DNA of 64,000 nucleotides from Prorocentrum cordatum (lineage: Eukaryota). Below, piece after piece: positions 16,088 to 59,514 of this stretch. The notes below the pieces were generated by a model, which searched no databases, had not been told where the DNA came from, and saw nothing but the letters and a program-made list of their open reading frames with translations. The translations under genes and the position numbers were made by a program. Each line of letters begins with the position of its first letter. The stretch's first letter is position 1. The DNA is taken from positions 248,001 to 312,000 of the forward strand of contig CAUYUJ010000003.1 of assembly GCA_963575745.1 (NCBI GenBank), in the 5' to 3' direction.

Positions 16088-16103
16088 GGAGAAGGAGGAG
16101 GAG
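16088..16103 (+). repeat. Left copy of candidate 16-bp target-site duplication of LINE-A (ggagaaggaggaggag)
   Basis: Identical to 23905-23920, including the gaa interruption of the GGA run; low complexity limits certainty. Confidence 0.7.
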
Positions 16104-16134
16104 ACCAGCGTACCCAGAGGTCAGCTCCCCGCGC

Positions 16135-19100
16135 CTAGCACGGCGCCTGAGGCAGCATGGGCACGCCTCCTGTCGAAGCTGTTGTAGCTGAGGCCGCCGA
16201 CGCTGCAGCCCATGATGTGCAGCGGATAGCCGTCGAATTTATATCATTCTTATTCAGAGGATGCTGAGTGCAGGGGGGAGCGAGAACGCAAGAAGGGACC
16301 GAGACGAGACGCAGAGAGCAGTGAGGACAGTGCCGAGAGCGTGCAGGTGAATCACGAACACGCCTTGAAAAGGAAAGGGACGAGAGAGAGACCCTCATCC
16401 AACAAGGGGCACTCTCCGCGCCGTGCGTGGGGCCGGGGAGCAACGGTGCGAGGGTCACTAACGGCGCGCCGCCGGGCAGTCCCCACTCGCACCGCGCCCC
16501 CCGTTGGGAAGACCACCTACGCCTGTACTTCCGCCCACTATGCAGGTGCCACGGGCTCGGGCGCCTGAGGAAAATGGGCAACAGGAGCCTTTTCCGACGG
16601 CACTCACACACATAGGGCAATCTGAGGGTGCCCCCAACTCCTGTACCAGGACTCGTACCAATAGAAGAAGAAAGAGTAGCACTGCATGACCATGACGACG
16701 AAATTCTCGTCGGAGGCGAAATCGAGGAGGAGGGTCCCGCCATCAGCGACGGACAGGGCGCAAACGAAGGGGCAGCAGCCGTCGAACACGGCCAGGTCGG
16801 GGAAAACGAGCACGGAGTAGTAGCGAAGAGAGAGGCGATCCGTGTCCACAACGGAGAAGCTCGTGACGACGGCGTAACTCTCCGAGACGGCGCAACTCTC
16901 GAGGATGGCGTGCAGCTCTCGAAGACGGCGCAACTCTCGTTGACGGAGACACTCTCGAAGACGGCGCAACCCTCGAAGACGGCGCAACTCACCATGACGG
17001 GGCAACACTCGACGTCGGCGCAATTCACGAAGAAGGCGCAATTCTCGATGTCTGAGCCCTTATTTCCATCAGAGGCGGTCGACCTCCGCACAAGAGACGA
17101 GATCTCGCAACTTACTCCAGAGCCCTTATTTAGAACAGAGGCGGTCGACCTCCGAACTCGAGACACAGGCTCGCAACTTACTCCAGAGCCCTTATTTAAA
17201 ACAGAGGCGGTCGACCTCCGAACTCGAGACGCAAGCTCACAACTTACTCCAGAGCCGTTATTTCCATCAGAGGCGGTCGACCTCCGCGTTCTAACGCCAG
17301 TGGCCGCAGGGCTCGAGGAGCACCCTGCGATCGAGACCTGGAGGAGGAAAGAGGCATGGTCAACGTCACCATCACCATCGGCGGCATCGCCATCATCGGG
17401 ATCCACTGCTGAGACGAGTGAGGCAAAGTAGTGCACCGACCCGTTGGCAGCAACGATGGGCAGGGACTCATCTCCATTGCTGTCCACAAGGAAGTCACGA
17501 ATACGGTGTGGTGCAGCGGGTCCCAAGTATTGCCTCATCTCTCTGCGAATCTCACGAAGGGCTTGGAAATGTCGATCCACCATCTCTTCCCAGAGCCCGT
17601 GCCGCGTCAAGGAGTTACGCGGGTCATTCAGCCACCGAAAGTAATCTACAGTATTGAGGCGCCCCTCGGTAGAGGTGTCCCAGGCAACCATGCAGATATG
17701 ACGAGCGAGTTCGTCGAGAGCACCACTCCAACCAGACGAATCCACCCATTCCATCGCCTCAAATTTGGCACGTACGTATGGGATGCACCACATCAACCAG
17801 TCGGCACGGCCGCTCTCGGAGTCATCCAAGCGCAAGATCCAGCGTGTAGCCCTTGGTGCAATACGTTCGCCGAAGACAACAGGTGTAGCATGCTCCACAG
17901 AGGAAGAATGTGGATGGCCCGCCAGACGCAGGATGTGAGTACTCGGTGACGGCGTCGACTTCGACGAGGTGGCATCGTCCAGACACCGCAACTGTTCAGG
18001 GAGAGAAGGGTCCTCACGAACGGGAAGCCCACCAGCACGAAGGCGTTCGACACGCCTGATGGTCGCACGATATTCACGTTCAAGCCGAGTAACATCCGCC
18101 TCGCATGCAGCTGGGACAGACATCGACGCTGCATGGACCGCGGAGAGCGCCACCGTGGCGGCAAGCGGCCATGGGAACATGGATGCCGCAGGTCGCGGCG
18201 AGGTGGCTGCGGGAGCGGACGCCCGCCCGTTGACGCCCTGCCTTGAGGGCAGGGCCTCGCACTGAGCCAAAGCGCCAGCAGGAATGGGCACAGGAGACAC
18301 TGGATGGGGACCAGGTTGGCCAGCTTCATCAGCGCTATGTATCACATCGTCGTCACACGGGGTGGGAGGGACCAGGTCAGGGATGGGGGCCGCAGCATCT
18401 GAACTCAAACAGGAGGTGGACGATGAGGTGAGCACATCCCACTGAGGCTGCCTTCGGCGGATCGTCTGGACAGCGGGAGGAGGTTCCCACCGTTTCAATT
18501 TGGCTGAAGGCCTGGCCAGACGAGAAGTGCGGACGGCGGCCTCAACATAACCACGCAACTGACGGGGAGTCGACACTAGAGCACCTTGCCGAGCATAGTT
18601 GAAGACCTGGTAATAGACATAGAGAGCTTCGAAGTGGTCAGGGTGGGGGTGGGTAAGGCCAAGACGCTGAGCCAGGGGGCGAGGCAGGGCACGCTGTAGA
18701 CCTTTGCAGACTGCCAGGTACAATTTAGGGCAGCGTAGATAATGTTGCAGCCGATCAGGGCCAGGGCATCCGAAACGACAGCGAAGTTTGCCCCTCGGGT
18801 GGATAATCCTATGTGATGTCAGCCATCCATGCCCCCAAGTCCGTAAGGCTGCCATCGCCCAGCTTTGCGGAACCAATGCCAAAAGCTCCTGAATAGCGGG
18901 CCAGTGGATCAGGTTGAGGAAGGGGAGGTAAGCTGTGAATAACGGGGTTAAGTGGCGAATCAGCATGGCAAGTAGAGGTTTGTGCGTACACATGTTCTGA
19001 CCCAACGAGCGGGCAGCAGCACGTTGCAGCTTGGGCCTTCGTGTCGTAACCTGAGCTTCCTCACGCATGGCAGAGCGGGCAGCGACGAGTAGGGGCTCTT

Positions 19101-22100
19101 GAGACCTCACGTGGACCAGCTCAAGGTGTTCAACGAACGCAGGGGATTTCCAGAACGATGGATAAACACGGGAGCGATCCACAGCAGCCAAGGGGATATC
19201 ATCAAACTTCCCTTCCACCACCTCTCTGTGCCAAAGAGAAGCCATTTGTCGCAGTAGCCGTAAGTATTCCTCAAAGCCCTGGAAGGTGTGAAAAGCAGCA
19301 CGTAGGTGAGCTGCAGTAGCATGGGCAGCCCACGATGGAATCTGAGGACCACCCCAGGCCGGGAGCTCCAGGATCGATTCGTTCGAAAAGAGGCCAAGAG
19401 GAGCACGGAGAACTTGGGCGATGGCACCACGCTCAATGGGAAGGAACCATTCGGGCATAGGGAGGAATTGGGCTACATACGCCAAACAGGGGTAGACCCG
19501 CGTGCGGTACAAGATACAATTCGTACAGACTGACGCAACCCCACGTCCCAACATCCGAGAGCGAGATCGTGCCTTCATAAGCGGGCCCCTCCAGTTCATG
19601 TCGACCGTCGCATCTGGGCCCAAGATCATCCCAAGATAAAGCAACCACCCCTCAACGGCAAAGCCTGACCAGTCACTCGCGATAGAAGCCAGCTGGGTCT
19701 GGGTCATGGTTTTCAGGGTTTCTGTCATGCGGCCGACGAGAGGGACCAGGGTGCACTTGCTGATCTTAATCTTGAGGCCCGCAATCTTTTCCATGACACC
19801 GAGGACCCGCACCAGGATGCGCAGAGAGGCTAGCTCATACAGGACAGCGCCTAGATCATCGGCACAGGCACGGCATATCCCCAACTGACGTTGCTCAATA
19901 CTCCGCTCGAGGTCGGCCAACATGGGGGAGGAGGCGAGAGCGTACAAAGACCCCGAGAGACCACAGCCTTGGATGATGCCCGAGCGGATCCAGAAGATGG
20001 TCGAGTAGCATCCCCCATCCAGGACCACACCTTCAACAGCCAAATACATCCAGCCCACAAAAGCGAGAATCTCGGCGGGGAGCCCAAGAGAGCCCAATAG
20101 CTGTAGCAGGAAGGACTGCGACAAGCTCGGGAAGGCCTGCCCGTAGTCGAACCCGACGAGGACAGGGTAACGACGCACAGCTAGGGGATGTTGCGATGCA
20201 AGCCGTGCATGGACATCCAGCTCAAGCACGTTGTAGCAAAAATTTCGTCCTCTAATGAAGCCTCTCTGGGAAGCAGGTGCAACGGCTTGGACGACAGGCT
20301 CGAGGACCCTGTTCATGACCGAGCTCAGGATCTTAACGTCGGTGTTACGCAGCCCCAGGACCCGTATCTTATCGGGAGACCGAGAACAAACCCCAGACGG
20401 CAGATCTGAGTCATCAGCACCTTTGGGGAGGAACGCCTGGAGGGTGACGCTGGCAGAGGCAAACAACGACTGACCTTGGCATAGCCATCCGAACATTCTG
20501 GCCAGGTGCTGGGCGCCGTAGTCGCACGCCGACCAGGCCGCATAAGGCAGCCCGTCGACACCAGGAGCAGAGTGACGAGCACGCCTGAGAACCTTACGAA
20601 ACATTGGGGTCAGAGGACAGTGCAGGTCGATGTCAGAGGCCTTGGTGAGGAACCTATCGAGGTACATCTGGGTCATGACAGGGTGGGGCTCTTTCTTGGA
20701 GAAGACAGGGGTCCAGTAGGCCGCCAGGGCCGCAGTGCGTTCCCGAACCTCAGAGATGGGGCCCTCAGGAGTATTGACCGCGGACAGTATCAGGCGCTTC
20801 GAAAACGGGGCCCATATGGAGGCCTTCCTTTCCATAGCTCGCAAGAGCGTGGCCGAATGAGGCCGCCAGGCAGATGAGGAGCCTGAAGGAGCACGATCAG
20901 CAGCAGCAGCAGCAAGCTCTTTTTCGAAGACCAGCCGATGTACTCCAGCGGCCCACTGCTCGAAGGACGGGGCGTGGCGCAGCGAGACGACCTGGCCGTC
21001 GACCATCAGGGCGTCGGCGGCGTGCTGGGAGGTCTCGATGAGCTTGAGGGCAAGGGCAGCGTCTTGACGCCATACCGCTCGTGCTATCCCACGAGCAACC
21101 AGCTGAAGCGTCCCAGGCAGGTCAGGGGCCGAGAAGAAGAGGATGTCGCGGGCCTCCCTGGCGGCCTCCTTCATCATGTACTTGTAGTGCTCTGTAGCCA
21201 CCGGTGGGCTCCATCGGAGCAGATCCTCATCACCATCAGCAACCATTCCTCGGAGTCGGCGCTGGAAAGCAACAGAGGTGAAGATGTGCTTGGGGATGGG
21301 TCGCTCAGCAGCGGGACGCACACCCCGAAGACGCAGCCGAATCGAGAGAGCAGCATGATCCGAGATGCCCATGGAGCACAGGTGCTCAGGCGTGTCCACG
21401 GTGTTAACCTCAGTCATGAGCTGACACATCATCCAGCCTGTGGCAGAACAGAAGAAGCGGTCGATGATGTTGATGGAATTGGTGAACTTGCAGAAATGGG
21501 TCGCCGCTTCGGAGTTAATCTCCATCATCTTGCCAAGTGTAGCCGCCCAGATTGGAGCATGTACTTTATGATCATGAGTCAACTGGCGCTGTACTCCAGT
21601 AGGTCGGTGAAAGATGAGAGAAGAATCGTAACTGTAGTTGAGATCCCCCAAGACAACCACAAAGTACGAGAGTGGGTCATCAGCAGCGCGACGAAGAGCA
21701 CAATCGATCTGCTCACAGACAGATTGTACCTCCCCCTTGGTCAAGCCGTGATTGTGAACGTTGAAGATCACCAGCTGTGTCTGCCCAAGTGCTACATCAA
21801 CACGAAGCACCCTGCCTCTGATCAGAGGCACCGCACAGCTACTGACCGAAGTGGATGAGAAAGGAGGAAGAATGACTGCAACTCCCCCAGAGCCGCGGAC
21901 AACCTCGCCGTCGTCATCTTCACAAAAGCTACTGTGGACAATGGCCGTGGAGGAAAGCCTGGCCACAAAGTCGTTCAGCTCAAATCGATCTGCATGCACT
22001 TCTTGGAGAGCCAAGATGGATCGCCCAGGTTGAAGTTTGCTTAGGTAAGATAGCTTAGGCGAGGCTTTCGCCCCACCAAATTGGAGAAGAGCGCGTGCAT

Positions 22101-22167
22101 TCCAAGTCATGAATGTGAGGCTGGCTGTGATCTCTCCGCCGACCTGCCCCACTGGAAGCACAAACAT
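16135..22167 (-). CDS. LINE-A ORF2: APE endonuclease, reverse transcriptase, Cys/His motif and long C-terminal extension (2010 aa from ATG 22167; frame open upstream to 23793)
   Basis: APE motifs MTWNARAL, LQEVH, LGDLN, IDRFF, SDHAAL. RT motifs APGVDG, QRGFIRGR, FDYGQAFPSL, GIIQGCGLS, CADD (19855-19866), YLGMILG. Cys/His motif CRFGCPGPDRLQHYLRC. Start codon uncertain. Confidence 0.93.
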   Translation of the reverse strand: MFVLPVGQVGGEITASLTFMTWNARALLQFGGAKASPKLSYLSKLQPGRSILALQEVHADRFELNDFVARLSSTAIVHSSFCEDDDGEVVRGSGGVAVILPPFSSTSVSSCAVPLIRGRVLRVDVALGQTQLVIFNVHNHGLTKGEVQSVCEQIDCALRRAADDPLSYFVVVLGDLNYSYDSSLIFHRPTGVQRQLTHDHKVHAPIWAATLGKMMEINSEAATHFCKFTNSINIIDRFFCSATGWMMCQLMTEVNTVDTPEHLCSMGISDHAALSIRLRLRGVRPAAERPIPKHIFTSVAFQRRLRGMVADGDEDLLRWSPPVATEHYKYMMKEAAREARDILFFSAPDLPGTLQLVARGIARAVWRQDAALALKLIETSQHAADALMVDGQVVSLRHAPSFEQWAAGVHRLVFEKELAAAAADRAPSGSSSAWRPHSATLLRAMERKASIWAPFSKRLILSAVNTPEGPISEVRERTAALAAYWTPVFSKKEPHPVMTQMYLDRFLTKASDIDLHCPLTPMFRKVLRRARHSAPGVDGLPYAAWSACDYGAQHLARMFGWLCQGQSLFASASVTLQAFLPKGADDSDLPSGVCSRSPDKIRVLGLRNTDVKILSSVMNRVLEPVVQAVAPASQRGFIRGRNFCYNVLELDVHARLASQHPLAVRRYPVLVGFDYGQAFPSLSQSFLLQLLGSLGLPAEILAFVGWMYLAVEGVVLDGGCYSTIFWIRSGIIQGCGLSGSLYALASSPMLADLERSIEQRQLGICRACADDLGAVLYELASLRILVRVLGVMEKIAGLKIKISKCTLVPLVGRMTETLKTMTQTQLASIASDWSGFAVEGWLLYLGMILGPDATVDMNWRGPLMKARSRSRMLGRGVASVCTNCILYRTRVYPCLAYVAQFLPMPEWFLPIERGAIAQVLRAPLGLFSNESILELPAWGGPQIPSWAAHATAAHLRAAFHTFQGFEEYLRLLRQMASLWHREVVEGKFDDIPLAAVDRSRVYPSFWKSPAFVEHLELVHVRSQEPLLVAARSAMREEAQVTTRRPKLQRAAARSLGQNMCTHKPLLAMLIRHLTPLFTAYLPFLNLIHWPAIQELLALVPQSWAMAALRTWGHGWLTSHRIIHPRGKLRCRFGCPGPDRLQHYLRCPKLYLAVCKGLQRALPRPLAQRLGLTHPHPDHFEALYVYYQVFNYARQGALVSTPRQLRGYVEAAVRTSRLARPSAKLKRWEPPPAVQTIRRRQPQWDVLTSSSTSCLSSDAAAPIPDLVPPTPCDDDVIHSADEAGQPGPHPVSPVPIPAGALAQCEALPSRQGVNGRASAPAATSPRPAASMFPWPLAATVALSAVHAASMSVPAACEADVTRLEREYRATIRRVERLRAGGLPVREDPSLPEQLRCLDDATSSKSTPSPSTHILRLAGHPHSSSVEHATPVVFGERIAPRATRWILRLDDSESGRADWLMWCIPYVRAKFEAMEWVDSSGWSGALDELARHICMVAWDTSTEGRLNTVDYFRWLNDPRNSLTRHGLWEEMVDRHFQALREIRREMRQYLGPAAPHRIRDFLVDSNGDESLPIVAANGSVHYFASLVSAVDPDDGDAADGDGDVDHASFLLQVSIAGCSSSPAATGVRTRRSTASDGNNGSGVSCELASRVRRSTASVLNKGSGVSCEPVSRVRRSTASVLNKGSGVSCEISSLVRRSTASDGNKGSDIENCAFFVNCADVECCPVMVSCAVFEGCAVFESVSVNESCAVFESCTPSSRVAPSRRVTPSSRASPLWTRIASLFATTPCSFSPTWPCSTAAAPSFAPCPSLMAGPSSSISPPTRISSSWSCSATLSSSIGTSPGTGVGGTLRLPYVCECRRKRLLLPIFLRRPSPWHLHSGRKYRRRWSSQRGARCEWGLPGGAPLVTLAPLLPGPTHGAESAPCWMRVSLSSLSFSRRVRDSPARSRHCPHCSLRLVSVPSCVLAPPCTQHPLNKNDINSTAIRCTSWAAASAASATTASTGGVPMLPQAPC
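17054..17288. repeat. 66-bp tandem repeat (~3.5 copies) inside LINE-A ORF2, with adjacent 18-bp-period repeats at about 16870-17045
   Basis: Units start at 17054, 17120, 17186 and 17252. Confidence 0.92.
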
Positions 22168-22180
22168 ATCAGTGATGGCG

Positions 22181-23740
22181 TCAAAGACACCACTGGGTGG
22201 CCGACGGCGCGGCGGTGATGTTCCGAATGGCCTCCTGGAGGTCACGACGGTCCAGGCCGAGGGCGCGGATCCCCACGTCGTTCCAAGAGAGCTCAGGGGG
22301 TTCATCTCCTGGCCGGGGGACAAGCCGCAGGATGTCGGTGTAGTCAGACTTGAGAACACTCCGCTCCCGATCAACAAACCACTTTCTCTGACTGTCGAGC
22401 TCCATGAGGGAAGAACGGACCTTACGAAGGAGCATCTCACCACGAACCTGTTTCGGCGACTTGTCAGGACCAAAGTGAAGACGGGCTGGGTCCGCACCTT
22501 GAGCTGGGCACTGGAAGACCCGCCATGCTCCGTCCGACTTGAGGTTAGCGAGGGCCTTTTGCACACGTCGGGAGGCCAGGCCGATCGGCCCAGAGAAGCA
22601 CACGGCAAACTTTTTGGCGGGGAGCGGCGTGAGGGCTTTGATCGTGTACGTGTCGTCCTCAGAGAAGTTGAGCTCGCCCATGAAGGAGTTGACCACCTCA
22701 CGGACGCCAGCCAGACCGACGAGCTTGGACGAGACCACAATGACCTGCGTCGGGTCGATCTCGCGGTCGAAACCAGGTGGGGCAGGGGGACGCGACGGAA
22801 GTTGTCGGTCCAGCTCACTCTGGCGGCGTAGCTCCTCGACCTGCTTCTGCAGCTCAGCCAGCTTGGTAGCCTGGGCCTCGATGTCCCGCTCAGTGTAGTC
22901 GACACGACGGGATAGGGCGTCATGCTGCTCCTGAAACTGGCGCTGCATGGTATCAAACTGCGGACGCACCGATGCCATGACCTGCTGATCAATGGAGGTG
23001 TGCTGCGAGGAAAGCTGCTTCTGAAGAGTGGCGAGCGTGGCAACGATGGGAGCGTTTGACTGCTGTACAGAATTGGTGATGGCCGTAGTAACGATATTGT
23101 CGAACTCATTGCGCAGCTGCATGAACCTCGCGGAGATGTCGGCATGGTAGAAGGCCCGAGTGAAGGCAGCATGCTCCTCCTCTTCGCCACAATCAGCAGC
23201 ACCACCAGCAGCAGCCTGAGCCCGCGGGGTGGCGCCCGCACCCGCCGCCGCGGCCCAGGGGTCGAAAAGCCTAGCAGCAGGGCCCTGCGGGGTGGCGTTC
23301 GGGTCGGGTCGCGCCTCCTGCGACGGGAAGGTAGCGGCCATCTCGAGCTCTGCAGCCACCTGTGCACGCTTGGAATCGTCCCATTCGTCCAAGGGAATAG
23401 CTTGAGCACCGCGAGATGCTCCCAGAGCCGCAGGGTCGGGGCCCCGATGCGAGGCTGCAACACCAGGAGACATAGGGACGTCCCCGCCAGCGCCACGAGC
23501 GCGGCCAGCACGGCGAGCACGGCGAGAGGGCTCAGGAGCAGGGCCAGCATTGCCGTGGGAGGAAGGCCGAGCGCGAGCTGCACGACGAGCACCACGGCTG
23601 CCACCGCTCCGAGAGGCAGAGCGGCGGGGTTCCTCAGAGGAATCACGGCCACCAGAGGAAGCAATCTCCGTATCAATATCTTCACCCCCATCGAGACGAT
23701 GCACGACATGGTGTGGGCGGTCGCAGGCGGCAGGGCCCAT
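22181..23740 (-). CDS. LINE-A ORF1 (519 aa), probable RNA-binding/chaperone protein
   Basis: First ATG after the SL. R/S-rich N-terminus, coiled-coil-like segment (LSRRVDYTERDIEAQATKLAELQKQVEELRRQ) and a globular-looking C-terminal part. Stop lies 13 nt before the ORF2 ATG. Confidence 0.85.
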   Translation of the reverse strand: MGPAACDRPHHVVHRLDGGEDIDTEIASSGGRDSSEEPRRSASRSGGSRGARRAARARPSSHGNAGPAPEPSRRARRAGRARGAGGDVPMSPGVAASHRGPDPAALGASRGAQAIPLDEWDDSKRAQVAAELEMAATFPSQEARPDPNATPQGPAARLFDPWAAAAGAGATPRAQAAAGGAADCGEEEEHAAFTRAFYHADISARFMQLRNEFDNIVTTAITNSVQQSNAPIVATLATLQKQLSSQHTSIDQQVMASVRPQFDTMQRQFQEQHDALSRRVDYTERDIEAQATKLAELQKQVEELRRQSELDRQLPSRPPAPPGFDREIDPTQVIVVSSKLVGLAGVREVVNSFMGELNFSEDDTYTIKALTPLPAKKFAVCFSGPIGLASRRVQKALANLKSDGAWRVFQCPAQGADPARLHFGPDKSPKQVRGEMLLRKVRSSLMELDSQRKWFVDRERSVLKSDYTDILRLVPRPGDEPPELSWNDVGIRALGLDRRDLQEAIRNITAAPSATQWCL

Positions 23741-23882
23741 GGCGGCTCAGCTCGCGTCGTTGTAGCCAAAATTGGGAGCGTGCTGTGGCGCACGACAGGA
23801 AGGAGAGAGGCGTCCTGGCCTCGGAAGGTTCGGGCCTCCCTGTCGCCTGCGACAAGGCTGAAGCCCCAGGGCAGGTTTCAAC

Positions 23883-23903
23883 CTTGAGCCAAAATGGCTA
23901 CGG
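23883..23903 (-). other. Perfect dinoflagellate spliced-leader copy (CCGTAGCCATTTTGGCTCAAG)
   Basis: Plus strand cttgagccaaaatggctacgg is the exact reverse complement of DinoSL positions 2-22. Confidence 0.97.
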
Positions 23904-23904
23904 G

Positions 23905-23946
23905 GGAGAAGGAGGAGGAGGAGGAGGAGGAGGAGGAGGAGGAGGA
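23905..23946. repeat. (GGA)n tract containing the right copy of the candidate TSD (23905-23920)
   Basis: ggagaaggaggaggag matches 16088-16103. Confidence 0.8.
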
Positions 23947-25302
23947 TGGGGAAGAGAGGGACGGGGAGGAGGAGCGTGTTGCCCCCTGAACAGCAATTGC
24001 GCTCAGGGTAGTTTGCTCCCTGTGGTGCGGACAAAAGAGAGACAGGGTATTGCACGGGGGGAATAGAGAGCCAGCTCAAATAGCTGGCTTCTCTGGCGCC
24101 CCACAGCGTAGGAGGGGGCCTGTGTATCGAAAGGCTGGCCGGGCAGCGGGGCAGAAACCAGCTACGTGCAATGCGTGTTGGAGCACTCCTTTACTGAGTC
24201 CCCCCTTCCGTCCGACTTGAGCGGTGGAAAAGGGGGTTAAGGGCGATAAGAGTAGGCGTGGCAACCAGCCCATCATCGCCCCCCCAGCGGTCTCACGCAG
24301 CCGATGCGGATACGTACCCAAAAACGTATGGCCGCAGTAACGTTGGCCATCCTGGTGCCAGATCTGGAACAAACGCCGCGAAAAAAACATCGAACGATGG
24401 TTGTTTAATGACATATTGTGATTAACAAAAGGCCCCACTGGGGTTGATGAACAGACCCCGCGGGGCGCGGTACTTTTTTTTTCAAAAAAAAATAATCACG
24501 CGTGCCAGGGGGAAGGAGGAGAGGGGAGGGCGAGGGGGGATAAGAAGGAGAAGGAGGAAGACGAGGAAAGAGAGGCACGAGGAGGAGCAGGAGGAGGAGG
24601 AGGAGGACGAGGAGGGGAAGGAGGAGGATGAGGAGAAAGAGGACTACCCGCTTTGCTCGGGTCGGACGGAAGGCTGGGAAAGGAAAGGGGGAGTTGCAAA
24701 GCCTGCTGCGCGCAGCTGGTTTCGGTCGCCCCGCCGAAAGGCCATTCCTCGACGCATGCCGCTTTCGGCGCAAGGAGGCGTTTGGATAATCGGCGACGTG
24801 AGGTTCTTGGCAAATGCCCCCTCTGCTGCGCCCCACTTTCGTCCAGCCCGCTTCGCCCGCGGGCCCGCATCGGCTCGACAGACAGAGGCGCCCTGGCTCG
24901 CCCTTGCCCCCAAACAACCCCCCCTTGCCCCTCGTTGGCGGCAGGGCGTCGGCGCCAATCGCCGGCGCCGTTCCGTGGATGTTCAATATGGCGGGCGCCT
25001 GCCCGCGATTCGCCCGAGCGGGGGAACTGTCTTTAAAACGCGCGCCCCTTGCATATTTGTTAATCACAAGCTGACATTCTGGCTCTTCGCTGCGTTGTTC
25101 GGGTTGCGCACCAAAGCCTAGGTTCTTTCCCTCCTACCAGCCCCCCCTCTGGACAATCTGCGGCGAGGCGGCCAAATGCGCCGCGCTCTCCCCCGGGGTG
25201 TTCGGCCTTCACCCCCGCCCGCGGCCGCCAAGACTGGGCCAGATCCATCGGCCGTCGGCGGTATCATGCCCAGAAGTTTACAAGACAGGGAGGATCCTAC
25301 TC

Positions 25303-29442: not shown

Positions 29443-30435
29443 TCATCTATTAGCGGCCCCCCACAGGATGCGGTAGACGGCGAAGAGGAAGAAAAGGTCA
29501 ATGTACTCGTCGTCGTACTCGTCGGGCTGGGCGCTCAGCAGCCGCCTCTCGTGGTCGCCGTAACCACGTCCAAAACATCCGCAAGCCGTTCGCAGACGGG
29601 CACAACCGCGGCACGCCTCGTGAAGCAATTGGTCCATGTATTGCGAAACATACGTCGTCTGATCCGCGGAAGCCTGCCCGCCTTGGTGGCGCATGTGGTT
29701 CACAATGCGATATAGAACGTAAGTGGATACGGCTTGACGCATCAAGGTATCATCGTCCATCGGCGTGCCCAATACGGCATGCAGCAAACCATGTTGCAAA
29801 ATATCTTGTCCCAGCCGTCGTCGCTGCCAGCCACGTAAAACTGGACATTGGCAGTACTGCTCCACAGCGTCTTGGGCCTTTGGGCTGCATCGGAGTATGC
29901 ATGGGCCATGTTGTCCCCGGAGGCTGCGCATGCGGCGGTCTGTCGTCCATCTGTTCAGCACAGTGCTCAGAGATGCTGCGCATAGCCTCGGCGGCACCAG
30001 GCGTCGCAGTCGTTGTAGTTGCTGTGCTACTCTGCGTGCCAGCTGGCCTGGGTAGACGGGCAGTCTCCAGCGTGATAGCCGCCCACGTAGACGCCACTCC
30101 ACACTGTAGTTGTCTTGCCGGAGCAGCCACTCCATGAACCATCGCTGCGTGCGCTTCTTGAAGCGTTTGTGGGCAGGTCTCGCCAACGGACCTGTGTCCG
30201 CCCCACCGAGGTCCAATCGGGCTGCGCGAATGTGGATTCCAGTAGCCGCGAGAGCTCGAGCTAGATCTCTAGCCACAAGATTTGGCAATGTTTTGGCATG
30301 ATTGAGGATCTTCAAACGGTCGTCTTCCAACGAGGCAGTTCCCTCAATGGAAATGAACCGTCGTAGGGGCCGATGAAGAGGCAGCTTGGAGGAAGTGTTA
30401 ATTCCAACATTGTTGATGAATCTTGGGTTTACACC
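29443..30435 (-). mobile_element. 5'-truncated LINE fragment (ORF2 C-terminus related to LINE-A)
   Basis: LVPPRLCAASLSTVLNRWTTDRRM...CILRCSPKAQDAVEQYCQCP aligns by eye with LINE-A LVPQSWAMAALRTWGHGWLTSHRI...CRFGCPGPDRLQHYLRCP; abuts (TCC)n at 30438. Confidence 0.8.
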
Positions 30436-38390: not shown

Positions 38391-38422
<32 letters not shown>

Positions 38423-43684: not shown

Positions 43685-43718
<34 letters not shown>

Positions 43719-44161: not shown

Positions 44162-46770
44162 GCGCCGTCGTCGTCGTCGTCTTCGTCGTTGTCGGCGTCG
44201 TCGTCGTCGGCGTAGTCGTCGTCGTCGTCGGCGTCGTCATCGTCGCTGTCGTTTTCGGCGTCGTCATCGTCGTCGTCGTCGTCGGCGTCGTCGTTGTCGT
44301 CGTCGTCAAAGTGGTCGTCGTCGTCGCCGTCGTCTGTGTCGTATTAGTCGTCGTCGGCGTCGTCGTCGTCGTTGTCGGTGTCGCCGTCGTCGTCGGTGTC
44401 GCTGCCAAGTGCAATTTGGTACCTGCCGTCGCGGTCATAGGAGGTATTGCGACCAAGTTGCGGGTGGGAGGGTGGGATGTTTGCACGAGTCGTGGGGAGG
44501 ACAGAATCAAGACAGCCAAAGTGAATTGCAACGCGTAGGTTGCGCAACATCGACCGCACAGCAAATATTGTACCAATGCATTCTCTTTTCTGGCAAGAAA
44601 TTCGATTCGACCCCTCCTGGGTGATCCGCCCCCCTTTTCGTACCGCACTTTAACCGCGACTGTGCCCAACCAGCCACTCGAAATCTCAATGCGTACCATG
44701 ACTGGCAGGCTGGTATCGCCCCCTTGAACCATCTGGAGAAAAAAACTTTTGCGCGCGCAGATGCCCATCACAAATCGAAACAACCTTTAAACAAACACGT
44801 GGTTTCGCAACAAGTTTTTTTTTATATAAAAAAGCTTGCTTGCTCGCGCCCTTGCGGTTGTTGCGGGAGCCATTGGTTTTCAATCTCTTCGCGCAGTGCT
44901 ACCGAACGGGCTTCGCGCGCGCATGCCGAAATCGTTCGACTTCCCTCGCGCGCGTGCTATCGCAAGGGCCCGCTTCCAAAAGTGGGGCGAAACGCGCGCG
45001 CGCTGTCGCGCGCGCGCGCGCCGCAATCCTACAAAAAAATCTTGGGCGTCGCGCGGGCGTCAAAACCGAGTGCCCCGAAACCATGTCACAACCGCAAGCA
45101 ACGTATGGTCATATGGCTTCGCAAAATAAAGTGTCGACCAAACCTGCGCTCGAGCTCCTGCGAACCCTTCAAACAACTATGGGCCATGCATGCTGTTCAC
45201 GGACTTCTGCCGAACGGGCCTCGCGCGCCGCATGCCGAGATCATTCGACAAAACCTTGCGCGCGCGCTGGGGGGTGGGGCGCGATCCGCGTCAGGAAATA
45301 CTACGCGGCCACTCGTGCACGTCATCGCCGACGCGAGGACACCGCCATCGTCGTCGGCGTCATCAGCGTCGGCGCCATAACTGGCCGCGCCGACGTCGCT
45401 GTCAACATCGCCACCAGCATCGCTACTATCAGCATCGTGTCTACCGCTGTCGATGTTGCCATGATGCCGCGCCCGCCAACGTCGCCGACTCGCGCTGAAG
45501 TGCCCGCTGGGATGTGCCCAGCGGTCAGCGCCGCCACGGCCGCGTTGGTCGCGCAAAGCTAGCTGGCCGCTGCGCAAAAGTGCATGCGCGGGCTGGCGCG
45601 GCCGCAGAAACGCACCAGCAAACACCAAGCACTCATGGCAATTGCCGCCGCTCGCGTTTTGCAGGACAAGTTGCGGGCGGGCGGGCGGGGTGATTGCGCG
45701 AGCAGTGGAGCTGACAACTGCGAGCTCCACAAAAAATGCACCGCCTATATATTGCACCAAATATGTCGTTGTTGAGGAGGAGGGGGAGGGGGAAGAGGAG
45801 GGGGGGGGGGGGGGGCGCCGCCATGGGCCTCCGGTCGCAGCAGCAGTCGCGGCAGCCACAGGTCTGGCAGGTGGCCGAGAGCGCCGAGTGCGGAAAGGGG
45901 GCCTAACGCGCCATGTTGAGGTCAGCAGCGGCGAGCAGGGGTGGGGGGGGGGAGAATGATGAGCCCCTCTCAAGGTGGCGGGGCGGGACTTCGGGGCCTT
46001 CTGAGGAGGCCTCCTCCTTTTCATCTCCGCGCTTGATTGCCCCAGAAAGGGCCGCGAACCCTTTGGGGCGGACCTAAGTTGGGGGGGCCCAAAACATTGC
46101 GGATAAGGGGGCCTTTGCTTAGATGCATCGAACCGGGCCGCCCCGATGTCTCATCTCTAACGCAAAGACGGGGGCCTCAGTGAGGCCGCGACTCCATGGT
46201 GTCATTAGGGTTGTAATAGGAGCTCTACCAAGAAGAACTTCCAACAAGAAACCCAACCCTGAGACCCGAGGGCGCCCATTGACTTCTGGCGTGGGAACGT
46301 CGCGCCCCCCGCGGCCAAGCCGTCGAGAACCGGGAAACCCAGGGCGCCCTGGAAGGTGAGTGCGGCGTTTCTTTGCGCGGGTTTCCACCGCAGGGGCCAT
46401 TTGTTTTCAATCCCTCGCCCGCCGCGACAAATATTAAGGAACGCGAGCCCGGCGGCGTCGCGGCGGCCGCGGCCGAGCGCCGGGGAGGCAGCGACCCGCG
46501 CGGCGGCTGCCTCCGCGGCCGGGGCGGTCGGCGGCCCTGGCGGGCGCCAAGGCTGCGCGCGAGCCGGCGGCCAGGAGGCGGGGGGGGCCCCGGGGGCGGC
46601 GCGGGCCCGCGCGGCCGGCGAGGTCACAGAGGAGGCCGCGCCCAGGAGGGGGAGGGAAGAGGAAGGAGGAGGAGGGGGAGGTGCTTGGCGAGGGGGGGGA
46701 GGAAGAAGAGGAGGAGGAGGAGTAGGAGGAGCAGGAGGAGGGGGAGGAGGAGGAGGAGGAGGCAGAGGAG
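41906..46770. repeat. Copy 2 of the tandem segmental duplication, with a ~0.93-kb insertion and truncated by LINE-B
   Basis: Colinear with copy 1 except for the 42272-43203 insertion and deletions relative to about 39480-39600 and 40770-41045; ends in a GGA tract. Confidence 0.9.
42665..43078. repeat. 73-bp minisatellite, ~5.7 highly similar copies
   Basis: Units start at 42665, 42739, 42812, 42885, 42958 and 43031. Confidence 0.95.
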
Positions 46771-49700
46771 AAAAAAAGGATGACGATTTTGGGAGCTCGA
46801 CGCCCTCACTGCCTGGAGTGCACGAGCTGCGTGGCAGGCGGCGCAGCGCGCTCCAGCAGGGCGACCTGATGGGCCTCTCACAGCCCATCCTCGGCAGAGA
46901 ATGCAAAAGAGCGAGCGCGAGGCTCGCGCGCGGCAGACGCCAGGGCCATCCTGAAGAAGGAAGAGGCGGCCTGGAGAGCCGACTGGCCTTGGCAAGGGCA
47001 GAAAGAAGAGTCCGTCCTCGAGGCAGCGGCCGAACCATCGCTCCGAAGGTCGGCGGGCTCAGAGAACTGGACATTCGCACGGGCGGCCGCGAGCAGGCGT
47101 CGGGCAGCTGCCGCCCGACGCCTGTCGCGAGCTCCCTCCTCCACCGCGCCGGCGAGGGGGGGGGGGTCAACCGAGGGGGCGGGGGCCCCCTCCTCCTCCT
47201 TGGTAGCAAAAGCCCTCGCAGCTAGGCTCTTCGACGCCGAGCCGAAAAGGCCAGTTGCAGCAGACGCGTCGCCCGCCGCGGATTTCCGTCGGGGATTCGG
47301 GTGCTCTCCTTTGTTGTACAAGTCTCTCCGAGCACATTCGGCGCGGCGTGTCTGGGTGGGCAGCCGTTGCGCGACTGACCAATGCCATCAACCCTGGCCC
47401 CAGTAGTGCGAACCCTGCACTTCATGCAAACAAACAGGCGGGACCCATTTGAGCACGGGAAAGCCAAATCTTCGTGGCCAAGACCTAGGAGCACTCCCTC
47501 GTCCAGCTTACTACAACCTGGGCGCGCTCCTGGGGCAGGCAAGTCAACGCCCCTGCTACCAAGCAAACACACTCGGCACCTCCAAAGTCCAGACCATTCA
47601 GCCCAGTCACGGCCAGGCTTGTCATGGGACAGACGGGGAGGGGCGTTGAGCACTCTGGTAGCACTAGTGAGATCTAACCGCGGCCACATCAGCCATATTT
47701 TGACGGCTAGCTTAAAGACAGCCTTAGCAATGGCTACCGTCCTGTCAACAGCTTCCATCTCCTTCCCGTCCGCGGGGTGGAAACTGATGGCATGCTTGGC
47801 GGCAGCGTCCGCGTCATTGCTACATTTGTGATCCAGAAGTTCTCGCTCGCCCAGACCGGATTATTCCATGTCTTGTGCACGCGTTTTCCGACAAGCGATC
47901 GGGGAGAGGGAGATTCGAGTGGTTGACCACATTTAAGCAGTCGCTATAAAGGACGGAATCAGATTTGGCGAGCGTGCCAGCCACGCCTCTAGCTGTGGCT
48001 AGAAATTCACCTGCTTGGGTAGTCTGAGGATACTGAGCCCGGACAGACACACGGCCTTCACCCAACAAAGCACCGGTGTCATCATGCATGGTGATGGCCC
48101 AAACTGCTCTGCTAAGTTCGCTAATAATGTGCCTGTTGCAGGAACCGTCGCGGAACAAGTGGCCCCAGATGCCCCCTTCCCTGGGCTCCTCCGGCCCATG
48201 AGGGCCGGCCAAAACATCCCCGCGCCGAGCAAACTGGGAAGCCCCTTCACGACAGGGCCTGGGGAGGTGATCGGCGGGATGGGCGAAAGCCCCATGACAG
48301 AGAAGGTTGGCCGAGTAGCTTTCCGCCTCAGTGTCCAAAGCTGGGGCGATGACCGAAGCCTCCGCAACCTCGGCTCTCTCATCAGCGCAGCGAGGGCAGA
48401 CCCAGAGCCCATGGTGAAGCGAGCCCTGGCCACCGCAGTGCACACACTCGTCACTAATGACATAACCGCAAGCGATCTCACGGTCGGGCGCCCAGATCGC
48501 ATTGCAGGCGAGGGCTCCAATCATCCCATGTTCACTGGGCGAGAAACCTTTGGAGGCAAGGGCGGCTTCGGGGGCATCGAGGCGCAGCCGAGCTCCAGCA
48601 TCCCATTCCTCCCACCCCAAGTCCCTTTCCATCGAGCGAAGCAGGGCCTCGCGGCAGTGGATGGACAACAACGCAGGGGAGGTGACCCCGGGCTCGATCG
48701 AATCGCCTCTGTCATCAATAATGGTCAGAAAGTCTGGCATATGCCAGCCCAGTCTCAGGAGCGCGAGCCTCGCGGCGCTGATCGGGCCCGGAACCGTGGC
48801 CCACGTGGTATTCTGTCTGGCCCAAACAGCCGCCCACGCATCTCTGAGCTCGGCCAAGGAAAGCGAGCTCGCGAAAAAAAACCTTGCCTGCGCCAACCCT
48901 CCTTGCCCCAGCGCAGCACGGGGGCCGTGGCCGCGCGCCGCGTCGGGTCCGAAGATAAAATGCAGCAGGCAGTTCAACTCCAGGACTGGGCGCAGGGGCG
49001 GACTTGGGCGAAAGCGGTCCTCCGCGTCAACAGTAAGCCGTGATCGCTGACTCCAATGATTTCCGAAACGTAGCCGGCGCCGGCGAGAGGGCCGGCCGAA
49101 CAAAACTCGAAGCGCTTTCCTGCCAAGAGCCCCAGGCAATTTTTTGAGACGCTCGGCACGTCTGCACATCGTGGCCATGCGCCCCTTGATTTTGCCCCCT
49201 CGCCCCTTGCCCCGGAACGATTTGCCAGCAGTGAAATCGACGCCGAGATTGACGGTGGAGCCCGCCACTCGGCCCGCCAGACGCCTTGCCTCTTGGCCAC
49301 AGCGGCAGCAATATCGTGATCAGAGGCAACGGTGCAAACTGCGTCGAGCGCACCGCTGCAGCCCATCACGCTGGCGATGGCGGAGCGCAGAGCCGCGGAA
49401 CCATAGACAATGGCAGACATCAGTTTAGCTTTTGGCCCAGTGGTCGGCAACCCACCGTCGTCAATGTAGGTGTCCAGCAGATCGGTCCGAGGGCCCAAGG
49501 GGATGGAGTCGAAATCATATAACCCAAACGCCCTGATGAAGGTGGTGGCGAAGCTGCGCCCCGCCACCGCCCCATCGAATCACATGATACGGCCCCGCGA
49601 GCAACCCTCCCAGGAATAAGAACCGACCACACCTGAAGGCGAGAATGCGCACTCTCGCGATGGCCATGGGGAAGTTGCGCCGCCTACATTTCGCCTCCAA

Positions 49701-52700
49701 CACACGCGAGTCGATGGTCTCATCATACTTGAGAATGCAATTTTTTGTTCAAGCAACTACATGAAGACTGCCGTGCGCAGCTCTGACTCCTTGCCTCCGC
49801 GCAACATCCGCCGCTCCCCTATGCTCGCCAGCGGCCCAGTACCGACGGGGGCGTTGCTGCTCCCAGTGCAAGGCGCGGGGGCGGCGGCACCGCCCCCATG
49901 CCCTGCGCCAAGAGCAGAGCGCCCCTATCGGACTGCAACCGCCAGTGGGCTTAGGGGGCAGCGCGAGCAATGCAGAAGAGATCTGCTCAGGCAACTGACC
50001 TAAACCCTCCAGTATTTTGAAAACTGACGGCTAAAGTGTCCAGACCGTCGTCGCACAAATACTGGGAGTGTCTGCGATTGAAACAACCAAATGACAAACC
50101 AGTTCCCCTTCTGTATTTCTTGGACACCTTGCGAATATCTTCGGCGCTGAGTCTGGGGGGGGGGGAGTTGCGCCAGGGTAGAGGGGCCCCGGTCCGCGCC
50201 CGGGCCATGCCCCCAGAGGCCGAGAATTGGATGCCTTCCGTAGCTAAAGGCGCCAAGAGATCTGACGCGATCTCTCCATCGGCGGACAGCGTGGCGGAAG
50301 CTGTCCACGGCGACGGCCCCCGAGTGCAGGCGTGGGCGCGTTTGGCGCCAACATCGATGCCTTCGCGAACTCAAGCCTGCCAACTCCTGTGAGACTCGTT
50401 AGCCGAACCTTCCCGAGCACCCCCCGAGGCCTCGTCAAGCCTCCCACGCAGATGTGACCCCATCGAATGTTGGAGTCTCGCTGGCGAAGCGGCAAGAGCA
50501 GCAACTTCGACAAAAAGCGGGCGAAGATGCTCAGGCAAAGTGGCAGTGGCTGGGGGGGGGGCACAGAGCAGAGCAGCAATGAAGAATTGGTGGCCTGCTC
50601 TCCTTCACCTTGCTTCGAATCCAAAAGCGCAACTAGAGCGCGAACTTGGGCGCTGGGCCACCGCGCAGCGCGGTGGGCGGGGCCCCTGATCTGGTGGCCC
50701 CTGCCCAAGAGGTTCTTCCAGACGAGCTGCGGGCCGTTGGGCCCCGAACCAAGGGCTTGGAGCTCGGCGCCCAACGCAGGAACAAGCTCGATTTCGGCCT
50801 TGCCAGCCCACGCAGCATAACAGGGTGCGAGCAGTGACGGTGCCCCCTCGGCGTTCCCACTAGGGGCGCAACGGGGGGGCCTGGTCAGCAAGCGCTCGCG
50901 CGCGAGACCAATCTGGCGGCTGCGGCCGAGGACCGAAGACAGCAGGCGGTGGCATCGGGGGGGGGGGGGGGGGGGGCGTGCGACAACTCAAACACGTAAG
51001 CCTCGTGGGCGAAGGATGCAAGACCACTCGGACCGGGCGATGCGGACTCAGGGTGGTGTTGTGTAGCGTCTCGCAGCTTTCGGCGGCCTTGCCGGGGCCC
51101 CCCGAAAACGCAAACTGGCCCAGAGCCTCGGGGGGCCCTTCCCCGAAGTGCGTGTGCCCAGGAGGGGCGACGTGCATGCCCATCAGCCGCTGAATACATT
51201 TCGAATCACTAACCTCCAGAGGGGGCACGTTGAAATCGGCACCAACGCAGAAGGGAAGGCAACAGGAATACATGCGCCCACCTATGGTAGCAAGGATTTC
51301 GATGTTTCTCGCACTCAACTTTTCAGCATGGTGGAGGTAGGGGGAGCAGGCAACAAACTGAAGACCTCTAGGCAGATGGGCGATGCCTGCCACGGCTCTG
51401 CAGCGAACAATCTCCGCCCCCCCACGGGGCCCATGTAGGCTCAGAGAACCCTGGCGAGGATGCGCGCGCCGGCATAGGTTGATCCAGCTACGGTGTTCGC
51501 CGCAGGAGAAAGAGACTCTTCCAGCCATGCCGAGCACGCCGCGCCGAAGCTTGAACAATCTCCCCGCCCTCACGCAGACGATGCTCCTGACGCAATATCT
51601 CATGAGCTGGCGTCTTGGCCAACGACTGTTGCATGGTGGTCCACGTGTTGCAATTGACCGGATGAATACAGAGCTCAAACGAGTCCAAGTGAACCTGGCC
51701 AGGACTATCGGGGCCCTGAGGGGTGTCAGAGGAGACTCCGCAGACCAAGGGATGCCTAGGGCCACTGATGTACTCGACGGGGCTGCACGACTCAAGACTG
51801 GTAGCTGCAGGGCAGCAGCTGCAGGGCTGAGGAAACCCCACAGACATATCGGGAACCATGGGCAAGCTGCGAGCAAAGGACGCAATGCCAGAAGCCCCTG
51901 ACGCAATGATGCGTCTGGCTCTCTACAGAGTGCGTTTGACAGCTCCTCGAAGCGTGGCTTTGCCGCGCTCGAAGAAGGCCGGGCGATGACTATGCGTGGG
52001 GGGTGGGGGGGGTGGGGGGCAGCGGGGGACCCGACAGGCTGTCGGATCACCAACGTCTCTCTTGAAACCGCTGCCGACTTGATCGCAATCGCTATCGGCG
52101 AGGCGGAGCGCAACCCACGGCGGGGCCACTCCCGGGACATCAGGACAGAAACAGACATCTAAAACCCACTGACGAGATGCGATGGCCCACGGCTGCTCGG
52201 CGCTACCTTCACAGCGCGACGTCTAAACTGCCGGCAGAAGTGCGCCACCCAAACGAGCCAGGCCAGTCCACGCAGCAGCCCCCGCTGGCAACCGCCCTGT
52301 CGCCGTAGAAGAAGGCCTGGCCGAATTCCTCCTCGACGCACCCCTTGAAGATGTCGTTTTCTCGCACTCCCCCCTGCAACAGCGCGGGCGGCTGAAGCAG
52401 GGGGATGCGCTTGTTCAAAGATGATCTTGGCTGCTCGCGCACGCAGATCGGCTGAAGCTGCAGGGTCAGCAGGATCGCCGCCGCCAGCGCCAGCAGGGGC
52501 GGGAGGCTGGGGCGCCGCTGCCCCGCCCCCCGAGGAACAGCCGGCCGCGCCGACCGTGGGATCTGCGCCGCCCTCAGCGGCAGGAGCGGCGCCGTTCTCT
52601 CCGCCGGCCTGCGGGGGCCGCTGAGCCTGAGGGTCGGCGACCTTCCGCTTCTTGCCGAGGCGCTGCGCGTGAGCCTTGTGCGCCTCCTCGATCTCGTTGG

Positions 52701-53799: not shown

Positions 53800-53855
53800 G
53801 CAGAGGAGGCGGGGGCGGATGAAGGGGGGGGGGGGAAGGGGGAAGGGGGGGGGAG

Positions 53856-53930
53856 GTGTGTGTATGTGTGTGTGTGTGTGTGTGCGTGTGTGCGTGTGTG
53901 CGTGTGTGCGTGTGTGCGTGTGTGCGCGCG
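53856..53930. repeat. (GT)n/(GTGTGC)n microsatellite
   Basis: Directly visible. Confidence 0.95.
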
Positions 53931-59230: not shown

Positions 59231-59261
<31 letters not shown>

Positions 59262-59514
59262 GAGGAGGGGGGGGATGAGGACAAGCTAGGTGCGCTCGCG
59301 TCATATCTGACATCCTACCCCCCCCCCCCCCATCCCTTACCATGGCGAAGACCCCCTCTCTCTCTCTAATCGCTCAGTCGGATGTCGAGCAGGGCAATGA
59401 TCCCGAAAGGGTACGCGACGCATTGTAGAGCGCGGCATGGCATGGCGTTGAAGAGCACCGAAAAGCGCAGTAGCAACCTAGCATTGCATTGAGTGCCGTG
59501 GCGTGGCGCGGAAA

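Follow-up and report, generated by a model that had tools for sequence, protein, structure and literature searches.

The 64,000 nucleotides (nt) of nuclear DNA from the G+C-rich dinoflagellate Prorocentrum cordatum analysed here (contig CAUYUJ010000003.1, positions 248,001 to 312,000 of the forward strand; hereafter the window) contain four long interspersed nuclear elements (LINEs), named LINE-A, LINE-B, LINE-C and element D, a LINE fragment called fragment F and two short relics resembling the dinoflagellate spliced leader (DinoSL, or SL), and all seven of these oriented features lie on the minus strand (Table 1). As an initial annotation of this DNA had recognised, the elements are LINEs. 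At least LINE-A and LINE-B begin with a DNA copy of the SL; LINE-A lies between two stretches of one and the same pyrimidine repeat, (TCC)n. The initial annotation also proposed that the choice of this target supplies a ready-made trans-splice acceptor, by which read-through transcripts could be processed into capped element RNA without a promoter.

Read on the minus strand, positions 23946..23883 consist of (tcc)n-ttc-tcc-c, then CCGTAGCCATTTTGGCTCAAG, then g, and a stretch of pyrimidines (40/40) runs without break into the exact 21-nt SL at 23903..23883. A scan of the window recovered this exact match (21/21, 23883-23903, minus strand) and a second copy with 2 mismatches at 59204-59224 (minus strand), where 0.02 SL matches are expected by chance and at least two were obtained in 0/100 shuffles. 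Both AG dinucleotides that the initial annotation had pointed out behind the tract are contained in the relic CCGTAGCCATTTTGGCTCAAG itself. LINE-A continues with GTTGAAACC, and both in LINE-A and in LINE-B the base following the relic is G, resulting in AG/G (the slash marks the junction). The base preceding the SL of LINE-A is C, the 22-nt SL having D (U/A/G) at this position.

A single frame of LINE-A is open for 2580 codons (23877..16135, minus strand) and encodes an AP-endonuclease (APE) and a reverse-transcriptase (RT) domain (Table 1), the closest solved structure to the latter being human L1 ORF2p (E 3.6e-10). Legible in the protein are WNARALL, LQEVH, GDLN and SDH, which we take to be catalytic motifs of the endonuclease, together with ADD in the RT and the Cys/His motif CRFGCPGPDRLQHYLRC. 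Its sole database relative at E <= 1e-10 is a 1379-aa predicted protein of Prorocentrum cordatum (42% identity over 52% of the query). By its frame and domains, LINE-A is a full-length, apparently intact L1-like element. The open frame includes, at 16868-17286, tandem repeats with units of 18 nt (9.9 copies) and of 66 nt (3.5 copies). Moreover, it stays open for ~800 codons past the Cys/His motif. Few LINEs would be expected to extend so far at the C-terminus, and this part may be coding or may just be stop-poor G+C-rich DNA.

The (TCC)n tract directly upstream of LINE-A is read here as the upstream remainder of a microsatellite target. Close to the relic it contains the 16-mer CTCCTCCTCCTTCTCC, an exact copy of which comes straight after ...gggtacgctggt at the other end of LINE-A, from where the pyrimidine tract continues to ~16061. 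This exact 16-mer occurs in 5 copies in the window, 2 of them at the two ends of LINE-A. LINE-A appears in this way to possess the target-site duplication by which LINE insertions are recognised, for which we give the 16-mer moderate weight. When LINE-A is excised in silico, the flanks join to (TCC)n-TTC-TCC-TCC-C-TTTTT-CCC-TCC-TCC, that is continuous pyrimidines. Since CTCCTCCTCCTTCTCC brackets the SL together with the element, the SL is part of the inserted cDNA and the TCC tract would be target DNA, and because the SL came in with the cDNA, the template RNA would have been trans-spliced. The 3' end of LINE-A shows no A-run and joins a TCC-type tract indistinguishable from target DNA. An insertion into an SL RNA gene was considered as well and rejected, as the flanks are TCC tracts and GTTGAAACC stands after the SL instead of a GTA(C/A)A... 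intron; Rfam detected no RNA gene in the window. Patterns of the 5' and 3' junctions of LINE-A gave 0 matches in viral contigs, and the 5' junction pattern gave 0 in genome contigs.

Contigs of 4 public runs (2 labelled as organisms, 2 as metagenomes) extend over the body of LINE-A with 90-100% identity, this coverage leaving out the repeat at 23898-23958 including the SL junction. In one of these runs (X1) the summed word depth of the contigs, which is no copy number, amounts to ~50-170 over the LINE-A body and is lower in its first 600 nt (24-48) and in the flank 5' of it (6), a hint of several LINE-A copies with 5' truncation. A module at 16319-16513 in the 3' part of LINE-A reaches a word depth of 1228 in X1 and 574 in X4, compared to ~50-170 and 5-20 elsewhere, and many contigs diverge at the module edges; the positions at which contigs part from the window include 16319, 16392 and 16421. 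This module could represent either a short repeat of high abundance or a 3' end that many truncated copies have in common.

Table 1. Features of the window and pyrimidine content of the element flanks. Pyrimidines were counted on the sense strand in the 40 nt outside each element end; the last column gives the share of all minus-strand 40-mers of the window that reach the count.
Feature	Position	Strand	Basis	Pyrimidines	Share of 40-mers
LINE-A, apparently full-length L1-like non-LTR retrotransposon, ~7.8 kb, without poly(A) tail	16104..23903	-	frame, RT comparison, contig coverage		
Complete 21-nt DinoSL relic CCGTAGCCATTTTGGCTCAAG, first bases of LINE-A	23883..23903	-	exact match		
(TCC)n pyrimidine tract directly upstream of LINE-A (sense strand)	23904..23974	-	sequence; TRF GGA period 3 at 23905-23974	40/40	
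Candidate target-site duplication CTCCTCCTCCTTCTCC, 5' copy, 1 nt (c) before the SL relic	23905..23920	-	exact 16-mer		
Candidate target-site duplication CTCCTCCTCCTTCTCC, 3' copy	16088..16103	-	exact 16-mer	39/40	
AP-endonuclease domain of LINE-A, aa 590-819	21421..22110	-	PF03372, E 7.5e-06, above its cut-off		
Reverse-transcriptase domain of LINE-A, aa 1168-1378	19744..20376	-	PF00078, E 1.3e-12		
Decayed SL relic CCATGGCCATTTTGGCTCAAG, 5' end of LINE-B	59204..59224	-	2 mismatches, edit distance 2		
(TCC)10 and poly-C tract upstream of LINE-B	59231..59279	-	sequence	39/40	
Frame-shifted APE/RT remnants of LINE-B	54835..57360	-	4 tblastn pieces against LINE-A, E 1e-08 to 2.6e-04		
LINE-C, identified by eye	46791..53803	-	ORF1-like coiled coil, GADFN endonuclease-like motif, CCHC and RNase-H-like C-terminus		
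Element D (60026 fragment), RT-bearing LINE, cut by the window end	60028..64000	-	PF00078, E 1.5e-14		
Fragment F, C-terminal part of a LINE-A-related LINE	29443..30435	-	against LINE-A aa 1662-1769, E 5e-04 (single comparison)		
LINE-A 5' flank				40/40	0.17%
LINE-B 5' flank				39/40	0.37%
LINE-C 5' flank				37/40	0.97%
LINE-A 3' flank				39/40	0.37%
Element D 3' flank				40/40	0.17%
LINE-C 3' flank				33/40	1.8%
LINE-B presumed 3' flank				36/40	
Fragment F 5' flank (exception)				6/40	

The other LINEs show related flanks. In LINE-B, 'attctt' stands between the relic and its tract, and skipping these 6 nt raises the 5' flank to 40/40 pyrimidines; the motif ATTTTGG is kept intact in the relics of both LINE-A and LINE-B. 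Beyond the LINE-B remnants a poly-C/TCC tract occupies 54610..54530, the 3' end of this element being presumed. The pyrimidine tracts of LINE-C, on the pieces of which no Pfam match was obtained, are located at 53856..53804 (5') and 46790..46645 (3'), and a 99-N assembly gap (53931-54029) lies just upstream of the 5' tract and a (CA)n-type repeat, hiding what precedes LINE-C. The start of LINE-C (53803..53781), previously noted as SL-like, had to be dropped as a relic, its 6 edits from the SL being at chance level (8.7 such matches per strand in shuffles). Element D contains an open reading frame (ORF) at 63998..60621 with an RT nearest to the R2 RT (E 2e-12), and is followed after its assumed 3' end by (TCC)n/poly-C on the sense strand (60027..59843); beyond the RT it is unrelated to LINE-A, the two belonging to R2-like and L1-like lineages respectively, as judged by the nearest solved RT structures. 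Upstream of fragment F the tract on the sense strand is of GGA type. This is the single exception to the common orientation, listed as a caveat by the initial annotation itself, and a weak one, since the fragment shows homology to LINE-A only from ~417 nt inwards. A twin-priming inversion was rejected as an explanation for fragment F, as the tract would then need to adjoin the sense-strand 3' segment. Pfam searches on 27 + 133 + 95 ORFs of the window found RT only in LINE-A and element D and APE only in LINE-A, and blastp with LINE-A, element D and fragment F over the window returned only the LINE-B remnants and no further LINE.

The pyrimidine-rich tracts claimed before LINE-A, LINE-B and LINE-C and the oriented tracts claimed after LINE-A, LINE-B and element D were all recovered, the 3' boundaries of LINE-B and element D being assumed (Table 1). 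Together, 7 ends of the four LINEs have 33-40 pyrimidines per 40 nt on the sense strand, values that are met by 0.17-1.8% of the background 40-mers, and the orientation bias that the initial annotation had anticipated thus holds within the window. The same repeat stands in one orientation at both ends of LINE-A, with which the 5' end of LINE-B, both ends of LINE-C and the 3' end of element D agree and fragment F disagrees. TCC/GGA loci of at least 3 units are indeed common, as had been cautioned (20 TCC and 14 GGA on the plus strand, 34 in total in 64 kb), and show no overall excess of the orientation of the elements; as the flank values are far above background in the absence of such an excess, the association of the elements with the tracts is real and oriented. 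That these runs are so common that element ends simply fall beside them, for which their number could be quoted, is already very unlikely: flanks of 39-40 pyrimidines are found in only 0.17-0.37% of 40-mers, yet they occur at four junctions (5' of LINE-A and LINE-B, 3' of LINE-A and element D).

To place LINE-A among other genome-encoded SL copies, the exact 21-nt SL was sought in environmental DNA, where at least 126 loci in metagenome contigs and 20 loci in contigs of metagenome-assembled genomes contained it. Among the matches listed, to which all counts on these contexts refer, 152 unique contexts were distinguished, namely 83 of relic type, 37 SL RNA genes (defined by SL followed by GTA or GTTCAAG), 24 AT-rich virus-like contexts and 8 with too little upstream DNA. 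A GTA(C/A)A...-type intron follows the SL in 37/37 contexts classed as SL genes. A microsatellite was scored as clean if a stretch of 20 nt was periodic to 90% or more and its end lay no further than 8 nt from the SL. Such a microsatellite is present upstream of 11/83 relics compared to 0/37 SL genes, 0/24 virus-like contexts and 10/3408 control positions taken from the same contigs, which for relics versus controls (13% vs 0.3%) corresponds to an odds ratio of 52 (Fisher p 2e-13). The repeat units at the 11 relics are ACACC, GGGT, CAT (twice), GT, CA, TA (twice), CT, AG and GACA; 9 of these are mixed in composition, one is purine and one pyrimidine. SL relics are linked to microsatellites in general, mostly to repeats other than pyrimidine tracts. 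The base before the 21-nt SL is A in 37/37 SL RNA genes and 24/24 virus-like contexts. Of the 83 relics, 52 have T at this position, 17 have A, 8 have C and 6 have G; the preceding base of the relics does not mirror the SL genes sampled. Tandem relics, with a second SL remnant behind the full SL, make up 11/83.

Five microsatellite-preceded loci had at least 2.9 kb of DNA downstream, and the layout of LINE-A is found in two of them, L070 and L066 (L066, like L127, was chosen by eye from outside the 11 scored relics). Both consist of (CA)n-C, T plus SL, a body of 3.2 kb (L070) or 3.4 kb (L066), AAAAA and (CA)n, with the same repeat strand on both sides and an identical 5' junction, (CA)n-C/TCCGTAG; L070 is a whole contig of 3353 nt. 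No RT or APE was detected by Pfam in their ORFs. By this layout, L070 and L066 are SL-capped, polyadenylated RNAs that were copied into a (CA)n repeat. Three loci were read as SL-headed LINEs, of which Pfam confirms only L143, where the SL is followed after ~0.9 kb by an AP endonuclease (PF03372, E 7.1e-08) and preceded by neither a repeat nor a pyrimidine tract. In L059, (GT)n-A plus SL is accompanied by a truncated relic in decay and by a frame of 434 aa, which at its end, ...WWNARALL..., resembles the beginning of the LINE-A endonuclease, a weak LINE reading based on a 7-residue motif (E 0.016). L008 is related to L059 (E 1.6e-09), has no repeat upstream and owes its LINE reading to that likeness. 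In DNA downstream of 132 + 20 environmental SL contexts, tblastn found no relatives of the LINE proteins of the window.

These junctions bear on whether a pre-existing repeat was chosen at all. The TCC tracts could instead be element-borne 3' tails that seed microsatellites, with LINEs piling up tail-to-head and the tract upstream of LINE-A being the tail of an older upstream element. TCC/poly-C tracts do follow all four assumed 3' ends, LINE-A lacks poly(A), the 3' tract of element D lies only ~560 nt upstream of the 5' tract of LINE-B, TCC/GGA runs are unusually frequent in the window, and LINEs and short interspersed nuclear elements are given as a source of new microsatellites in the literature (PMC3812793). 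We nevertheless regard such tails as improbable: no LINE coding remnant was found upstream of LINE-A (the ORFs in 24079-25133 are without RT or APE), the 3' tract of LINE-A is short (~44 nt) and imperfect whereas the 5' tract is the long one, and the bodies of L070 and L066 are set off from (CA)n by an A-run, as expected of a target and not of a templated tail.

In the explanation that we favour, and hold to be probable with appreciable room for doubt, an L1-like (AP-endonuclease plus RT) non-LTR retrotransposon recently gave rise to LINE-A as an intact copy. A trans-spliced RNA of the LINE would have undergone target-primed reverse transcription within a (TCC)n.(GGA)n microsatellite, and the pyrimidine tract would be a by-product of this. 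The template RNA would have received the dinoflagellate SL through trans-splicing, and full-length reverse transcription would have written the SL into DNA as the first 21 bases of LINE-A. Presumably the GGA strand was nicked and then primed on the 3' end of the RNA, target specificity lying either in the endonuclease or in annealing of that 3' end. Nicking and priming on the GGA strand would fix the orientation, such that the sense strand of LINE-A is the TCC strand, and would leave the target repeat on both sides of the element with a duplication of ~16 bp. The tract before the SL relic would then follow mechanically from the choice of target. Expression of new copies may well proceed through read-through transcripts to which an SL is added anew at an AG of the relic; this acceptor AG is the relic's own, and no observation points to a need for the TCC tract.

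Several points weigh against this explanation. The 16-mer CTCCTCCTCCTTCTCC is a common variant of TCC tracts, by which the support from the duplication is limited, and the usual 3' end of the family may lie upstream of 16104, given the divergence of contigs near 16319; this is the main uncertainty about the flanking duplication of LINE-A. The flanking repeat gives independent support to the 3' boundary of LINE-A only, those of LINE-B, LINE-C and element D being assumed. The tract of fragment F is in the opposite orientation. Upstream of the two SL-like relics that are not LINEs (ends 8816 and 1612) a repeat is missing (16/40 and 20/40 pyrimidines), although the same targets would be expected for retrogenes that arose through the same machinery. 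Among the three environmental loci read as SL-headed LINEs, a microsatellite stands upstream only at L059 and not at L008 and L143. Finally, the sample consists of only four or five elements of one window.

As to the claim that target choice supplies the acceptor, one half of it stands: the (TCC)n pyrimidine tract comes from the target and is oriented. The other half does not, as both AGs belong to the SL relic and would therefore be present at any insertion site. The anatomy and the oriented insertion hold, but they do not imply that the site works as an acceptor. Since the TCC tract lacks AG, the first AG after it is the one in CCGTAG, and splicing there predicts daughters with the SL followed by CCATTTTGGCTCAAG; such a tandem relic is found in 0/2 cases (LINE-A and LINE-B). 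As the relic of LINE-A is single, its RNA would have been spliced at the terminal AG or at the acceptor of a relic-free master copy. Splicing at the terminal AG (CTCAAG/G) would copy the 5' end of the parent exactly, the alternative being an ordinary acceptor of a master copy. It is plausible that read-through transcripts are re-spliced at any relic-bearing copy, and the location of all seven features on one strand fits read-through in a one-way gene array.

Whether the tract has a function of its own, serving as the polypyrimidine part of an acceptor of which the relic provides the AG, with read-through transcripts yielding capped element RNA and no promoter needed, is to be judged on the same observations, and we consider it unlikely, if less so than the tails discussed above. 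The tract abuts the relic in LINE-A and nearly does so in LINE-B, AG/G is found at both solid relics, and the minus-strand position of all oriented features fits co-orientation with a one-way array and read-through transcription. According to Song et al. 2017 (PMC5585692), the AG inside DinoSL relics could serve as acceptor when trans-splicing takes place once more, and tandem relics occur in the environmental sample (11/83). The AGs, however, come from the relic whatever the target, the tandem relic expected from use of the first AG is missing in LINE-A and LINE-B, the microsatellites at other relics are mostly not pyrimidine, and a pyrimidine tract precedes 0/3 of the loci read as SL-headed LINEs. 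The tract is also found at 3' ends, where an acceptor has no use, and among the papers listed by our literature search for polypyrimidine at dinoflagellate trans-splice acceptors, as far as titles and the beginnings of abstracts go, there was no study of dinoflagellate acceptor sites.

Alternatively, the SL relic itself could act like a promoter through its TTT(T/G), by which LINE copies would transcribe themselves and the flanking tract would be irrelevant. This motif of DinoSL relics is proposed by Song et al. 2017 (PMC5585692) as a retained promoter motif that explains retrogene survival, and ATTTTGG is intact in both LINE-A and LINE-B. Such a role leaves the tracts on both sides and at the 3' ends unexplained, and it can coexist with the target-primed insertion that we favour; we rank it slightly below even the tails in likelihood.

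Both halves of that explanation have precedents. Retrocopies with DinoSL relics, 'recycled processed cDNAs', were reportedly described in dinoflagellates by Slamovits and Keeling in 2008. As in those retrocopies, the DNA-encoded SL at the 5' end of LINE-A marks a reverse-transcribed, trans-spliced RNA, and the AG of the relic can accept a new SL. Unlike the known ones, LINE-A is an autonomous LINE itself, intact, without poly(A), with a single complete relic and repeat flanks. Among relic-bearing genes, the Gene Ontology term 'RNA-dependent DNA replication' is enriched according to Song et al. 2017 (PMC5585692), which implies that SL relics before RT genes have already been seen implicitly. 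In the literature found, relic-bearing genes and RT genes are treated separately; RT genes may already appear in supplementary lists of relic-bearing genes.

Kibi, Koshi, Waldo and Mino are microsatellite-specific non-LTR retrotransposons. Such LINEs are well established, Togen targeting (TG)n and some HERO families targeting microsatellites (PMC4640811). LINE-A resembles them in standing between two stretches of one simple repeat in fixed orientation, and differs from the Togen and HERO reports in that repeat specificity is apparent here for one copy and suggested for three more. SL sequence beside a LINE in a trans-splicing organism is also known from SLACS, CZAR, CRE and NeSL-1, which target SL genes. 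Such elements have a restriction-like endonuclease and integrate within SL RNA genes, whereas LINE-A encodes an AP endonuclease, has its SL inside the flanking repeat and has no SL-gene intron after it. 'Spliced leader exons' are named as LINE targets, with NeSL, in the same source (PMC4640811). With human L1, LINE-A shares APE, RT and a Cys-rich C-terminus, a flanking duplication and a hint of 5'-truncated copies, the word depth in X1 increasing from 24 at the 5' end to 100-170 within the body; unlike human L1, it has no poly(A) tail and no separate ORF1 (one frame of 2580 codons), is not known to have an internal promoter, and its 5' end is set by the SL. A further difference from the microsatellite-specific LINEs above lies in the lineages of the window, L1-like and R2-like by RT and both with APE-type motifs, and in a 5' end made by SL trans-splicing. 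LINEs of Symbiodinium were described by de Mendoza et al. 2018, the main text of which contains 'spliced leader' 0 times (PMC5890265). Our literature search, which covered few subscription journals and no supplementary tables, returned no SL-capped LINEs, no target sites of such elements and no link between DinoSL relics and microsatellites.

Some further observations were made. The 24 unique AT-rich contexts contain the complete 21-nt DinoSL, always with A before it, ~40-50 nt downstream of a AAAAATTGA-like motif, which we take to resemble the early promoter of giant viruses; some of the contigs measure 64-118 kb. They include loci L002, L003, L017, L018, L030, L043, L045-L047, L053, L061-L063, L065 and L069 as well as L077, L082, L083, L098, L107, L124 and L125, and ORFs downstream encode DUF4116 repeats, DNA polymerase X, AP endonuclease, RING finger and SNase. 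These contexts look like giant-virus(-like) genes carrying a genome-encoded host spliced leader. In the window, the two SL-like relics lie at 8816-8836 (minus strand; TCCGTAGCCTCTGGCTCAAG, 3 edits) and 1597-1632 (minus strand; TCCGCAGCCACTGGCTCAAG, 4 edits), the latter having a truncated relic, CCCCCTCTGGCTCAAG, and next GTGAGC behind it. In front of both stands ccaccag, which is not a repeat, and they are probably paralogous host retrogenes. Segmental duplications with long (CGT)n arrays inside them occupy 34190-46740 (37870-39484 vs 43204-44780, 87%; 39602-40766 vs 44778-45932, 90%; 41042-41834 vs 45928-46738, 87%); the edge of the third coincides with the TCC tract at the 3' end of LINE-C, which agrees with insertion and is no proof of it.

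We rate LINE-A as the combination of a microsatellite-targeting LINE and a DinoSL-relic retrocopy, two kinds that are both already known. It joins two signatures, being SL-capped, so that its RNA passes through host trans-splicing, and lying in fixed orientation in a simple repeat. As such it is an intact candidate for the machinery behind the thousands of SL-tagged retrogenes of dinoflagellates and bears on the growth of their genomes. The 13% of relics preceded by a microsatellite, compared to 0.3% of controls among the matches listed, suggest that SL-tagged retrocopies often land in microsatellites. If this is true genome-wide, insertion sites of retrocopies would become predictable, the abundance of simple repeats would be tied to retroelement activity, and the need of these LINEs for a promoter would become directly testable. 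More tentatively, and as a possibility that we would not yet bet on, retrotransposition in these organisms may be directed to microsatellites in general, each lineage having its own repeat (TCC here; CA, GT, CAT, AG, GGGT and GACA elsewhere), while the LINEs are promoterless and obtain their capped 5' end from read-through of one-way arrays combined with SL trans-splicing at the relic. In that case, TCC lineages would rebuild a cassette of pyrimidine tract plus AG at each insertion, the cellular mRNAs copied by each LINE lineage would use the repeat of that lineage, and LINE activity would shape the simple-repeat landscape of the genome.

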